DNA from: Candidatus Eiseniibacteriota bacterium
Lineage (GTDB): Bacteria > Orphanbacterota > Orphanbacteria > Orphanbacterales > Orphanbacteraceae
Assembly (NCBI GenBank): GCA_029262235.1
Contig: JAJCZU010000008.1
Coordinates: 266,381-330,380, forward strand
Length of the DNA: 64,000 bases
Direction of reading: 5' to 3'
Notes under the pieces: model-generated
What the model saw: only the letters and a program-made list of their open reading frames with translations
What the model was told of the DNA's origin: nothing
Database searches by the model: none
Shown: positions 2,782-53,449 of the stretch, piece by piece
Position numbering within the stretch: position 1 is the stretch's first letter
How the letters are laid out: each line of letters starts with the position of its first letter
Translations under genes and position numbers: made by a program

Positions 2782-2900
2782 AGAGATGAAACAAGCGGTG
2801 GAGAAATCGGTTCTCGGATCGGCGAGGCCTCTTTACTTGGCCATTTGGCCAGGCCGAGCCGTCGAGAGAACTGATTTCTCCAAACGCTCCGTTCTTCTCT
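2782..2900 (+). repeat. structured intergenic element B, copy 1
   Basis: Rod-like hairpin GGAGAAATCGGTTCTC/GAGAACTGATTTCTCC around the 20-nt core TACTTGGCCATTTGGCCAGG, identical at 32466-32485. Confidence 0.75.
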
Positions 2901-30445: not shown

Positions 30446-32020
30446 CTAAAGTAAAACGTTCGAAGATTCGGTGCGGCGCGATCCCGCGTCCGCCGTTTGT
30501 CGTCTGGTGATCAGTTCGCCGATCGTGCGTATCCCCTGTTCGATGCGATCTTCCGGTTCTTTTGTAAACGAGAGCCGGAACGTGTTCGTTCCGGAGCCGT
30601 CGAGATGAAACAGTTCGCCCGGCGCGAAATTGACGCCGGCGCGGCGCGCCTCGATCAGAAGATCCACCGTGTTCATGGAAACGGGGAGTTCGATCCAGAG
30701 CGACATGCCGCCGTCCGGCTTCGTCCAGCGAACGTCAGACGGAAAAAAGCGCTCGATGGCGCTCAGCATGGCCTGCATGCGATTGTTGTTGATCGCGAGA
30801 ACGCGCTCCAGATGCTCGTCGAGAAGCCCGCGTTCGCAGAAGCGGTGAATCGCGACCTGGGCGAGGCGGCTCGGCGCGAGATCCGTGTACGTCCGGATCT
30901 TGCGGAACGGATCGCAGAACGCTTTCGGAACCGCAAGCCATCCGAGGCGGAGCCCCGGGAAGAGCATCTTCGAGAACGTGCCGAGGTAGAGCACGTGCTC
31001 GTGCCCTTTGAGCGCCTTGAACGACGCAACCGGCTCGCCGGTGTAACGGAGATCCGCGTCGAAATGATCTTCGAGCAGCGGGACGCCGTGGCGCACCGCG
31101 ACTTCGAGCACCTCTTTGCGCCGCGCGAGCGGCATCGTAATCCCGGTCGGATTCTGGAAGTTCGGCATCGAATAAATCAGTTTGGCGCTGCGGCGCGTCA
31201 GTTCGTCGTCGAGCAGGTCCGGACGCATGCCGTGCTCGTCCATCGCGATCGGGACGAGTTCCGTTTCGTAGAGCTGAAATACGCCGATCGCGTTGTGATA
31301 CGTCGGCGACTCCACCATGATGCGGTCACCGCGATCGAAGAGCAGCTTGCTGACGAGATCGAGGCCCTGCTGCGAACCGCCGAGTATGAAGATTTCGTCC
31401 TCGTTGATCGACGCCCCCTGCTCGCGAAGGCGGTTTGCGAGCCATGCCCGCAGAGGCGGGTACCCTTCGCGTGAGCCGTAATCGAGAATGCCCGGCCCCA
31501 TTTCGGCCATCGTTTCGTTCATGACCGCGCGGAAGTCTTCGAGGGGAAAGTGATCGGAGTCGGGCACGAGGCCGCCCAGTTCGATGCGCGGCACGTTGTC
31601 GGTAACGGAGAGCCGGGCGAGGGCGTCAGGTCCCGATCGCGTGCGGCGCGACAGCGTGTGCTCGATGCTTCCGCGATTCGCGCCGCGGGGTCGGTTCCGG
31701 CCGCGCCCTGTCGGGGCCGCTTCGCCGGTACGAACGCCCGCGCGGTCCGGACCGCCCATGATCCCACTCGGGCCACGGTCGCCGACATACGTACCGCTCC
31801 CGACGCGCGTTTGGACCGAGCCGCGGCGTTCGAGTTCGGAATAAGCCTGGGCGACGGTGTTACGGTTCACGCTAAGCAGAACCGCGAGCCGCCTGATCGA
31901 CGGCAGGCGCTCTCCCGCCCCGAGCTCGCCTTCACGCACGAGCGCGTCGATGCCGTCCGCGATCTGCTGATGGATCGGCCTGGTTTCCGATCGATCTATG
32001 ACAATGTTCTGCATGAGCAT
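30446..32020 (-). CDS. pdxR: MocR/PdxR-family regulator (GntR wHTH + aminotransferase-like PLP domain)
   Basis: LPSIR.LA..L.VNRNTV..AY; PNFQNPTG; [15 protein letters not shown]; directly upstream of pdxST. Confidence 0.85.
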
Positions 32021-32051
32021 GACACTTACCACCCCGGCTGTTGATCCACCT

Positions 32052-32104
32052 ATTATATCGGCAAGATTTCTTACAGACAATACGAATTGTCACAAAGTGT
32101 CCCA
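32052..32104 (-). promoter_or_regulatory. pdxR promoter with overlapping operator-like repeats
   Basis: TTGTCT-N17-TATAAT; inverted repeat GACAAT-ACGA-ATTGTC (32076-32091); direct repeat TGTCACA-N3-TGTCCCA. Confidence 0.65.
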
Positions 32105-32115
32105 TGACGGTGGTG

Positions 32116-32201
32116 AGTGGGGGTGGGTCCTGACGCGCCGGGACACCCCGATCTCGACGGGGCTCGATCGGGGCCCCGTCCGGCGCGCCACCCACCCCAC
32201 T
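32116..32201 (-). repeat. structured intergenic element A, copy 1
   Basis: Nested stems; homologous to 52784-52866. Strand inferred from a G-U versus A-C pair in copy 2. Confidence 0.75.
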
Positions 32202-32206
32202 TTTCG

Positions 32207-32290
32207 AGCGAGAAGAAGGGGGAAGGGAAAAGGGAATAGAAAGGAGATGGAGAGAAGAAAGAGGAGAAAGAGAATGGAGGGCCAAGGGGA
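32207..32290. repeat. homopurine (A/G) tract
   Basis: About 80 nt almost entirely A/G; similar tracts at 2712-2775, 2890-2935 and 52905-52995. Confidence 0.85.
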
Positions 32291-32304
32291 GCCGGAACTG
32301 CATG

Positions 32305-32540
32305 GGAACAGAAAGAGAGGACAGGATCGGGGCGTCTGGGGACTGACACGCTCCCCGGGCACGACTCCTGACTCGCCTCCAGGGTGCCGGTCCGGAAGTC
32401 GGCGAGGAATACGGGACGGCGAGTGAGGCGCGAGGAGTTGTTCTCCGTATCCCGCTCGGCCTCCGTACTTGGCCATTTGGCCAGGTCGAGCGGGTCGAGG
32501 AGAACAACGACCTCGCGCCTCTCCACCATACGTCCCTCTC
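32305..32540 (+). ncRNA. putative multi-branched structured RNA containing element B copy 2 (32425-32521)
   Basis: Closing stem GAGAGGAC/GTCCCTCTC encloses three hairpin domains; G-U pairs favour the + strand. Expression unknown. Confidence 0.45.
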
Positions 32541-32584
32541 CGCTTCCGGAGCCGAACGCCCGACTCTGGGGTATGCTAGCCAGA

Positions 32585-33634
32585 ATGAGTGCTGCCCGTA
32601 CCATTATTACCGTTCTGTGCATGGTCGCCGGATTCGCCGCGACGTTGTCGCTGATCCCGTTCGAGGCGTGGCCGGTCGAGCTTGCGGCAAGCTTCCGCCT
32701 GCAGATCGCCGTGGTCGCAACGCTGGCGGCTGCGCTGGCGCTCGGCCTGCGGGCCCGCGCGCCGGCCATGATCGCGGGAGCCGCGGCCCTGATCTGCTGG
32801 GCTTCTGTCCTTCCGTTTGCCGTCCCCGGGCCGAAGGACGATACGGCGGAGGCGTTTGGGCGGGAGGCCTCTTCATTCCGCGTTCTGACGATCAACCTCG
32901 AATGGTCGAATCGAAATGCAAATGCCGTGCTCGGCGCGGTGCGCGAGGCGAACCCGGACATCCTCGTCCTTCAGGAAGTGGACAACTGGTGGCGCGAGCA
33001 GTTCGGCGCGCTCACGGACATCTTTCCGATGCAGCGATTCGATCCCCTTTCGCGCCGGCCGGGAGTCGCGGTTCTTCTCGGGAAGAAGATCGAACTCCGC
33101 GACGAGGCGTGGCTGCCGCTTCACGGACGCCCGTATGCCGATTTCGTGCTCGCGGTCGCGCGGGAAGGCGGCTCCGGATCGGAGGGTGGCCTCGAATCGC
33201 CCGGCTCGACAATGGCGCCCGCGTTTCGCCTTACGGCGCTGCATGCGCTCCCGCCACGGTCGGCCCTGCTTTATCGCGCGCGGAAACGCCAGCTCGACGA
33301 CGTGCGCGGGCATCTGCTCGCGCACGCAACGACGGAACCGCAGCTCGTGGTCGGCGACTTCAACACGACGATCTGGTCCCCTTCCTATAGAAAATTCACG
33401 CGTGAACTGCATCTCGAACGGGCTCGCCTCGGCTACGGTCTCGTGCCCACATGGCCTACATGGAATACGTTGCTTCAAGTGCCGATTGACCATATTCTGC
33501 ACTCGCCAGGTTTCGTCGCGACCAATACGAGATCGATCACGATCCCGGGCAGCGACCATCACGGCCTCCTCGCCGACGTGCGACTGAAAGCGCACGCACA
33601 CGGGGACGAGCCTGCACCGGCGAAGGATTCATGA
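32585..33634 (+). CDS. membrane-anchored endonuclease/exonuclease/phosphatase family protein
   Basis: N-terminal TM helices; LT.N, DI..LQEV, VGDFN, IDHIL, GSDH. Confidence 0.9.
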   Translation: MSAARTIITVLCMVAGFAATLSLIPFEAWPVELAASFRLQIAVVATLAAALALGLRARAPAMIAGAAALICWASVLPFAVPGPKDDTAEAFGREASSFRVLTINLEWSNRNANAVLGAVREANPDILVLQEVDNWWREQFGALTDIFPMQRFDPLSRRPGVAVLLGKKIELRDEAWLPLHGRPYADFVLAVAREGGSGSEGGLESPGSTMAPAFRLTALHALPPRSALLYRARKRQLDDVRGHLLAHATTEPQLVVGDFNTTIWSPSYRKFTRELHLERARLGYGLVPTWPTWNTLLQVPIDHILHSPGFVATNTRSITIPGSDHHGLLADVRLKAHAHGDEPAPAKDS

Positions 33635-52783: not shown

Positions 52784-52866
52784 CGTGGCGGGTCCTGTCG
52801 CGCCGCGACACCCCACACCTCGTCAGGCTCGGTGCGGGGTCCCCGTCCGGCGCGCCACCCGCCACG
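52784..52866 (-). repeat. structured intergenic element A, copy 2
   Basis: GGGTCCTG.CGCGCCG.GACACCCC...GGGG.CCCCGTCCGGCGCGCCACCC shared with 32116-32201. Confidence 0.75.
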
Positions 52867-52981
52867 GTCCCGCACAGGACAACCTCAACACCCCTCGCCC
52901 GCGAGGGGAAAGGGGAAAGGAGATAAGAGGGGGAAGGAGAAAGAAAGGGATCGGAGTATCCATTCCCCATCCCCTCCTATC

Positions 52982-53449
52982 CCCTCCTGTTCCTTACTTC
53001 GCGCGGAGGCGTCGGCACTGCCGCAGCATAGGACGGGGAATGAGTACTCGAATGAATGCGAAACTCCCTCCTCCCGCCCTCGTGCATCGGCCCCCGCAGG
53101 CCGAGCCCCATTGGAGGACCGCGGGCACGGTGCCCCTCGTTCCGAACCCGATGACAGACGGTCCGACAGGGCGAGGCCGAGAGGGAAACCTATCTCCTCC
53201 CACTCCCTCCTGTTCCTCACTTCGCGCGGAGGCGTCGGCACTGCCGCAGCATAGGACGGGGAATGAGTAATCGAATGAATGCGAAACTCCCTCCTCCCGC
53301 CCTCGTGCATCGGCCCCCGCAGGCCGAGCCCCATTGGAGGACCGCGGGCACGGTGCCCCTCGTTCCGAACCCGATGACAGACGGTCCGACAGGGCGAGGC
53401 CGAGGAGGCCGATACACGAGGGCGGGATCTTAGGGGATCCTCGCATTCA
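52982..53449. repeat. 200-bp near-identical direct repeat (52982-53181 and 53205-53404; period 223), element D
   Basis: Only two substitutions seen between the copies; the second copy is completed by a complementary arm at 53407-53449. Confidence 0.92.

Follow-up and report, generated by a model that had tools for sequence, protein, structure and literature searches.

Features of the spacer and its neighbourhood

The window, i.e., the whole stretch of DNA that was analysed, is 64,000 nt long and corresponds to G000:C8:266381-330380 (G000 is the genome studied, C8 one of its contigs). According to gene calls and Pfam matches, the spacer of interest (32033-32584; 552 nt) separates two divergently oriented genes. 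On its left side lies a minus-strand gene for a MocR-type regulator (30446..32032; GntR and aminotransferase domains, PF00392 and PF00155), on its right side a plus-strand gene of the endonuclease/exonuclease/phosphatase type (Exo_endo_phos, PF03372; 32585..33634), the 5′ leader of which is conserved in G001, a sister species of the same genus. From left to right the spacer contains a promoter-like site of the regulator gene that was found by promoter scan (32080-32052), a minus-strand copy of element A (32110..32201; an imperfect palindrome of ~82-90 nt, detected by blastn and nhmmer), a plus-strand homopurine tract of ~90 nt that is associated with element A (32205..32300), a stretch of ~120 nt termed "arms" (32305..32424, plus strand), a 97-nt imperfect hairpin on the plus strand termed element B (32425..32521; conserved core 32441-32506, or C8:298821-298886 in genome coordinates) and a leader of ~60 nt. 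The position of the purine tract is kept in G001, its sequence not exactly.

Two more spacers of the window carry the same kinds of elements. At 2.8 kb, a second B copy (2789..2895, plus strand; C8:269169-269275) belongs to a different outer-arm sub-family and has pyrimidine tracts on both sides, and the initial annotation was correct in reading this spacer as tract, B and tract. It was equally right about the spacer at 52.8 kb, which it read as A, tracts, D and D. A second A copy (52787..52863, minus strand) is followed there by a purine tract and by two tandem 216-nt units of 97% identity (52966..53404, plus strand), each ending in a D element. Element A, tract and first D are orthologous in G001 (contig G001:C756); the second D is a tandem duplicate found in G000 only, and as G001 has just one 216-nt unit, the duplication is a recent one.

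Examples of purine/pyrimidine tracts in the window are found at 2712-2780 and 52900-52950. Inside the 3′ part of a plus-strand coding region that ends near 2684, a 42-nt unit is repeated three to four times in tandem (2409-2576; 81-82% identity), which presumably gives rise to a repeated peptide. After this plus-strand gene, a canonical stem-loop terminator at 2690-2720 is followed by a mixed C/T tract, with no pure T run.

Stability of the predicted branched fold

The initial annotation had proposed that positions 32305-32540 form a 235-nt multi-branched cassette, in which a closing stem holds together two arms and element B. The stems themselves are present in the sequence. The closing helix of GAGAGGAC (32315-32322, plus strand, at the 3′ end of the purine-rich region) and GTCCCTCTC (32532-32540, plus strand) comprises 8 pairs with one bulged C, and the two arms lie within 32323-32424. 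The minimum free energy (MFE) fold of 32300-32545 shows the four-way layout of closing helix, two arms and B, with −130.4 kcal/mol and z = −5.42, and 0 of 200 shuffled sequences folded as well. Moreover, two Logan DNA assemblies confirm that the arms are contiguous with the flanking gene. These data are in favour of a functional structured RNA or a modular cassette that spans the whole fold.

When the parts were folded separately, B alone reached −73.2 kcal/mol versus an average of −35.4 for its shuffles (z = −10.61), with 0 of 200 equalling it, while the arms alone (32305-32424) reached −46.1 versus −45.5 kcal/mol (z = −0.18; 77 of 200 shuffles as good). B is therefore far more stable than shuffled controls, and the arms are no better than these. 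The stability of the whole fold derives entirely from the hairpin at 32425-32521. The arms also proved to be unique spacer sequence: blastn against the whole 4.47-Mb genome returned the self-match only, so that a lack of other copies holds for the arms, but not for B. In the Logan contigs, which stem from two DNA runs of one study, the arms are present at single-copy depth (12.9 and 8.5) and no variant without arms was found; the B core reaches a summed contig depth of 408 and 241, which is ~30 times that of the flanks, and contigs break inside the core.

The orthologous spacer of G001, in which the coding DNA beside the spacer is ~80-82% identical to that of G000, allows a comparison. There the purine tract is followed by no more than the 3′ half of the B outer stem, after which come the conserved leader and the beginning of the downstream gene. 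What is absent or different in this spacer are the arms, both closing-stem strands and, of B, the 5′ half together with the apex. Since half a palindrome can only come from deletion, B would have occupied this site before the two species split and would later have been truncated in G001. Purine-rich 5′ and pyrimidine-rich 3′ flanks are general for B copies, so complementarity of the closing-stem strands is to be expected here, and the pairing of arms and closing stem outside B is apparently incidental.

Searches against Rfam 15 gave 0 matches at the gathering threshold in the 64-kb window, and permissive settings applied to 32000-32600 only yielded sub-threshold look-alikes of miRNA-precursor hairpins. 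Only B recurs, and the 235-nt fold is not a unit. We consider a functional RNA or cassette made up of the whole fold to be extremely improbable; this reading is already largely refuted, and a false lead, the 235-nt branched RNA at 32305-32540, is thereby removed. The object of interest is the B family with its companion repeats, not the branched fold.

Sequence and structure of element B

Copies of B in G000 amount to 57 by blastn, 60 by nhmmer with a core HMM and 69 by a covariance model (CM), a few of the CM matches being opposite-strand echoes. The copy in the spacer described here scores 62.6 bits with nhmmer and 103.4 bits with the CM; its tip forms a mini-hairpin (GGCC-ATTT-GGCC), and the structure also has a 4x4 internal loop and a bulge of 8 nt on the 5′ side. 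The full hairpin is ~110-135 nt long, and when 45 copies were folded in their context the median was 122 nt and 44 pairs. The central ~60 nt are conserved and asymmetric, with 19 invariant columns, and the model scores ~100 bits on one strand versus ~30 on the other. In an alignment of 40 copies, 93.2% of the cells are paired, and both partners vary in 12 of the 21 pairs. This pairing level was reached by 0 of 500 shuffles and by no slid register.

The outer arms of B behave very differently from its centre. Those of 46 copies fall into 20 clusters (13 of them singletons) with a median pairwise identity of 45%, versus 75% for the core. Within each copy the two arms are nevertheless complementary to each other (69.5% over 38 nt, versus 37.9% in 300 random intergenic controls). 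Arm-like sequences away from a B core were not found (0), and nested insertion of B into other repeated palindromes was rejected on this basis.

B as a D element that has lost its centre was also considered and rejected: the consensus sequences of B and D resemble each other weakly, without significance in the 5′ half (equalled by 221 of 500 shuffles) and marginally in the 3′ half (12 of 500). An orthologous hairpin on contig C3 bears on this idea (C3:73059-74430 versus G001:C431:5560-5960); it has the same outer stem in both species, but in G001 this stem encloses a D of full length, in G000 only a D-like apex of 45 nt.

A stable hairpin with compensatory changes and a core that is strongly strand-asymmetric, as seen from the two scores given above, could also be expected of a family of strand-specific small RNA or ribozyme genes. 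Mismatches in the B stems, however, are distributed without strand preference (G:T 82 versus A:C 73). The lack of a wobble asymmetry points to a palindrome at the DNA level and argues against an RNA that is selected on one strand. Further points against small RNAs or ribozymes are that no Rfam family was matched, that B takes both orientations relative to neighbouring genes, that in-frame genic copies exist, and that B is limited to one genus with an about 20-fold difference in copy number between sister species (see below). In our view this explanation has hardly any chance of being right, and neither the RNA-like units of the initial annotation, for which Rfam gave generic hairpin noise only, nor self-cleavage found any support.

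Position and orientation of B relative to genes

All statistics on the genomic context rest on a crude in-house gene caller (3,456 genes, 90% coding) rather than on a standard annotation. By these calls, 54 out of 60 B copies lie between two known neighbouring genes, 2 lie within genes and 4 at contig ends; the copies are dispersed over 9 contigs. Convergent spacers harbour 26 copies, and such spacers represent 12.8% of all spacers and 14% of the intergenic length. B is found preferentially at gene 3′ ends and almost always between genes.

The orientation of B follows a strong rule. The nearest gene is located on the 3′ side of the B plus strand for 49 of the 54 copies, and for 39 of 43 independent runs of like-oriented copies (binomial p = 3e-8). 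Where the nearest gene end is a 3′ end, B is antisense to the gene (36 of 38 copies), and where it is a 5′ end, B is mostly sense (13 of 16). This rule does not follow from transcript orientation alone. Spacers with multiple copies read minus, minus, plus, plus, plus, and the copy at our locus obeys the rule as well, since it is on the plus strand, 79 nt upstream of a plus-strand gene.

Such regularity could mean that B is primarily a functional cis-element (a terminator or insulator, a protector of mRNA 3′ ends or a protein-binding site) and that its spread is secondary. On its plus strand the B hairpin has a pyrimidine tract on either side, and the 20 nt following the hairpin in 3′ direction are 67% pyrimidine with 14% G, versus 64% purine on the other strand; this arrangement would stop transcription heading into the adjacent gene. 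Besides the orientation rule, the antisense position at gene 3′ ends and the enrichment in convergent spacers, the asymmetric core with its 19 invariant columns is in agreement with this explanation, as expected for a protein-binding site. On the other hand, the B copy at our locus has no canonical T-run terminator, and an empty site in G001 already possesses a normal intrinsic terminator, which is kept beside B in G000. In-frame genic copies, tandem arrays and a species-specific burst are moreover typical of selfish spread. A primary role as cis-element therefore appears unlikely to us, although more probable than the RNA readings discussed above.

Filled and empty sites in a sister species

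B sites were compared with G001, a MAG that is 82% complete and consists of 830 contigs breaking at repeats, so that its B counts are lower bounds. Of 14 sites, 12 are empty in G001 (a single G001 contig spans the site), one is occupied (C4:79394, corresponding to G001:C595) and one, the site of our spacer, holds the truncated remnant. The empty sites are located on contig C4 (857669, 861711, 875244, 876249, 941063, 941813, 948998, 502954, 35216 and 1017988), on C3 (C3:74320) and on C7 (C7:169769). As MAFFT pairwise alignments were poor near the indels, junctions were read by eye from the sequences. Direct repeats could be read at two junctions and differ in length between them; the other junctions are too diverged to read.

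The first of these junctions belongs to the region C4:875185-876374. In G001 it is a convergent spacer of 79 nt that consists of a stop codon, a small palindrome, an intrinsic terminator and a stop codon. In G000 it measures ~1.19 kb and contains B in minus orientation, a small ORF with a copy of the terminator on each side, a pyrimidine tract, B in plus orientation and another tract. The B(−) palindrome of ~155 nt (C4:875209-875366) has entered the middle of the small palindrome, with 9 nt separating it from the stop codon, and a direct repeat of 6 bp flanks it. At the second junction (C4:948998), a B of 142 nt with a direct repeat of ~8-9 bp including one indel abuts a purine tract that is also present in G001. 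At both sites the copy-specific arms came with the insert. They are absent from the empty sites in G001, and an origin of the outer arms by fold-back from the local flank was rejected for these two copies for this reason.

The G001 empty site of C4:875 has a stem-loop with a short T run that is similar to the terminator at 2690-2720 of the window.

B can also enter coding sequence. In a membrane-protein gene (C4:939752-941767), B together with a D-like mini-hairpin forms an insert of 177 nt (C4:940930-941153) that adds 59 codons and keeps the frame open, and the G001 ortholog lacks the insert. In view of the insertion polymorphism, the direct repeats at two sites and this in-frame case, B acts like a mobile palindrome of MITE type. 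A DnaE-like ORF that runs through a low-complexity stretch with one B and one A (C2:114507-117968) could represent a second in-frame insertion, unless the gene caller has produced an artefact here.

Segments bracketed by inverted B copies

Three segments present in G000 only are bracketed by B(−)...B(+). One (C3:73078-74409) holds a gene with a DNA alkylation repair domain (PF08713), one (C4:857669-861769) holds three genes where G001 has a different 0.96-kb segment with one ORF, and the third (C4:875244-876307) measures 1.18 kb versus 79 nt in G001. In addition, a G000-only gene of 1.06 kb at C4:34.3-35.3 kb ends in B(+). These cases would fit an attC-like recombination site for cassette capture, with inverted B pairs marking the cassette ends. 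Yet an integron integrase was not found in G000: the best match to TIGR02249 has 76.6 bits versus a cut-off of 265, a level of generic tyrosine recombinases that was seen in all 14 control genomes. B copies are dispersed and do not form one array, many are solo insertions, with direct repeats at two junctions, and a conserved centre with variable ends is the opposite of attC, whose conserved ends and variable centres in cassette arrays were not seen. The bracketed segments also hold other added modules and may thus represent several independent events. Taken together, we judge an attC-like function very unlikely.

The region C4:857637-861804 versus G001:C775:2927-3883 constitutes a variable islet between conserved genes.

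Range of B across genomes

The CM detected B 69 times in G000, at least 3 times in G001 and 0 times in 29 other genomes, 7 of which belong to the same family. A 15-mer pattern of the B core gave a similar distribution (42 in G000, 1 in G001, 0 in 39 others). Searches for the exact 19-mer of the core gave 5 occurrences among 185,579 species genomes, none among viral contigs and one in a metagenome collection. All six outside 19-mers are matched by the model over the seed only, and hence represent chance matches. Literature searches on repetitive DNA of Eisenbacteria, and on repetitive extragenic palindromic together with polypurine, returned no description of these elements.

Companion repeats and homopurine/homopyrimidine tracts

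The initial annotation had viewed the spacers as assembled from interchangeable modules like BIME mosaics and had suggested an all-against-all comparison of intergenic regions. We performed it on 1,462 spacers with tracts masked, and recurring modules were indeed found: four non-tRNA repeat families, namely B, D, A and E. The mosaic view thus applies to the spacers of this genome, with its four families and tracts, but not to the 235-nt stretch itself. Family D (~105-125 nt) has 30 nhmmer matches, and its 3′ part 27 blastn matches. Family A (~82 nt) has 29 nhmmer and 28 blastn matches. Family E (~150 nt; 25 nhmmer matches) is flanked by purine tracts and has no copy in the window; examples of its sites are C4:1231174-1231347 and C2:194845-196124. 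About 16.5 kb of spacer DNA, tRNA genes included, consists of sequences with at least 5 other copies, and the repeat families explain much of the odd spacer architecture of this genome. G000 and G001 do not differ in the frequency of A and D (47 matches each), neither of which was found in other genera of the family.

Tracts were defined as homopurine or homopyrimidine stretches of at least 30 nt and at least 90% purity. G000 has 184 of them, 136 of which are intergenic, though only 9.8% of the genome is intergenic; shuffled intergenic DNA has 0. They are 30-190 nt long and partly pentanucleotide microsatellites. After merging (n = 138), 68 tracts lie within 100 nt of a repeat and show a fixed strand relation to it: the pyrimidines are on the repeat plus strand for 35 of 35 tracts near B, 12 of 13 near A and 11 of 12 near D, and 14 of 15 tracts near E are purine, the strand of E having been chosen arbitrarily. 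Some purine tracts are already present at empty sites in G001. Their pre-existence suggests that tracts do not belong to the mobile unit; they resemble landing pads or features that accumulate along with the repeats.

Two other ideas were tried and discarded. Tracts as transcript-oriented signals show no consistent relation to the gene strand (35 pyrimidine versus 25 purine tracts at 3′ ends, 19 versus 17 at 5′ ends). A retro-element with a SINE-like head and a purine tail does not agree with the purine tracts that pre-exist at G001 empty sites, nor with a genome in which RVT_1 was not matched.

Search for a mobilising enzyme

The G000 assembly is 95.5% complete and consists of 11 contigs. It has no match to PF01797 (Y1_Tnp, RAYT/IS200), for which the same search matches 6 of 14 reference genomes, and no match to PF07282 (TnpB zinc-ribbon), PF00078 (RVT_1), PF01609 (DDE_Tnp_1) or PF01548 (IS110); control genomes were matched in each of the transposase and reverse transcriptase domain searches. 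The only matches among the transposase families searched are three to rve. Two are IS3-like and located at the ends of contig C11 (30.5 kb), where positions 1-526 and the last 526 nt are inverted copies of an IS3-family transposase with 95% identity, and one is degenerate (C3:249553, within C3:249343-250448). These genes show no similarity to the repeats, and no IS with ends matching B was found. The associated nuclease, reverse transcriptase or transposase envisaged in the initial annotation was therefore not found in this 95.5%-complete assembly. The Exo_endo_phos gene next to B is conserved at this position in G001, where only a truncated remnant of B is left.

Interpretation of element B

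Considering these data, we think it likely that positions 32425-32521 are a lineage-specific, non-coding mobile palindromic repeat of the MITE/ERIC/RPE kind, and that the rest of the stretch is unique spacer whose pairing is incidental. The enzyme that would have moved B in trans may have been lost, may be missing from the assembly or may be of an unrecognised kind, and the conserved centre is the likely recognition feature. B would land beside homopurine/homopyrimidine tracts and in small palindromes just past stop codons. It may be retained at gene ends because its stable hairpin and pyrimidine-rich flanks do no harm there; alternatively, it might be mildly useful as a transcription barrier or 3′-end protector. 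The copy in the spacer described here would predate the species split.

A, B, D and E might even share one machinery that recognises the hairpin centre or a cruciform and not the element ends, although we regard this as rather doubtful. Such a machinery may insert in a strand-specific manner at tract edges and in the middle of small palindromes that adjoin gene ends, and each move may carry along the palindromic halves of the previous target. Elements may then grow in layers, with the conserved core followed by sub-family arms and finally by copy-specific outer arms, and inverted B pairs may bracket, and perhaps move, whole genes. If true, this would be a mode of transposition or recombination that works without RAYT, TnpB, reverse transcriptase or a matching IS.

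Returning to B as a mobile palindromic repeat, it is a recently active small element in an uncultured lineage that reshapes the ends of genes, has made at least one protein longer and borders species-specific genes. What is unusual in B is the conserved centre with idiosyncratic arms, the strong orientation rule and the negative outcome of the search for a cognate transposase. MITE-like repeats that are restricted to one lineage are in themselves common. The design with conserved centre and variable ends, the strictly strand-specific link with the tracts and the fact that no candidate enzyme was found deserve specialist attention.

Relation to known repeat systems

ERIC/IRU sequences of enterobacteria are imperfect palindromes (~127 bp) whose central core is conserved; they affect neighbouring mRNAs in a manner that depends on their orientation, and are not known to have a transposase. 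Compared with this general description, B belongs to the same size class, is likewise an imperfect long palindrome with a conserved centre, is extragenic and close to gene ends, and has no known cognate enzyme. It differs from ERIC/IRU in occurring in a different phylum, in its far more diverse outer arms and in its association with homopurine/homopyrimidine tracts, and no sequence relation is expected.

REPs measure 20-40 bp and their copy number is in the hundreds. With REP/BIME and REPIN-RAYT systems (compare PMC2817692), B shares the position as extragenic palindrome at gene 3′ ends, clusters of opposite orientation and mosaic spacers. The B hairpin is, however, ~120 nt long (core ~60 nt) and present in tens of copies, and unlike REPIN-RAYT it resides in a genome without a RAYT (Y1_Tnp) gene.

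MITEs, as characterised in an excerpt of PMC10969869, are similar to B as small, non-coding, multi-copy and mostly intergenic elements with a long hairpin and presence/absence polymorphism between close relatives; short direct repeats occur at two B junctions. Terminal inverted repeats are found within each B copy, but the terminal sequences vary between copies (45% identity) while the centre is conserved, and neither an IS with matching ends nor a candidate transposase was found in the 95.5%-complete assembly. MITEs have target-site duplications of fixed length; at the two B junctions that could be read, the direct repeats measure 6 bp and ~8-9 bp. The same excerpt (PMC10969869) describes pneumococcal BOX, RUP and SPRITE elements clustered in one spacer, and in B-bearing spacers different elements share one spacer as well. 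It further describes Rickettsia palindromic elements (RPE) of ~150 bp that can sit in frame in protein-coding genes (PMC10969869). B resembles RPE by its in-frame insertion into the membrane-protein gene; unlike RPE, it has one genic case and one candidate, most copies are intergenic, and there is no sign of a conserved encoded peptide.

As the ends of B are not conserved between copies and no cognate IS was found, unlike in MITEs, and as B shows neither the REP/RAYT nor the attC features, we place it as a new lineage-specific repeat among the small palindromic mobile repeats, outside any named family.

The tracts have a counterpart of their own. TMECO intrastrand triplex motifs of E. coli are described in an excerpt of PMC4666352 as a repeated purine/pyrimidine-rich intergenic motif, sometimes in inverted pairs, that is associated with locally elevated genomic variability. 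The tracts of G000 are likewise repeated purine/pyrimidine-rich intergenic motifs, but TMECO is a single conserved motif, whereas the tracts described here are variable in length, microsatellite-like and accompanied by four hairpin families.
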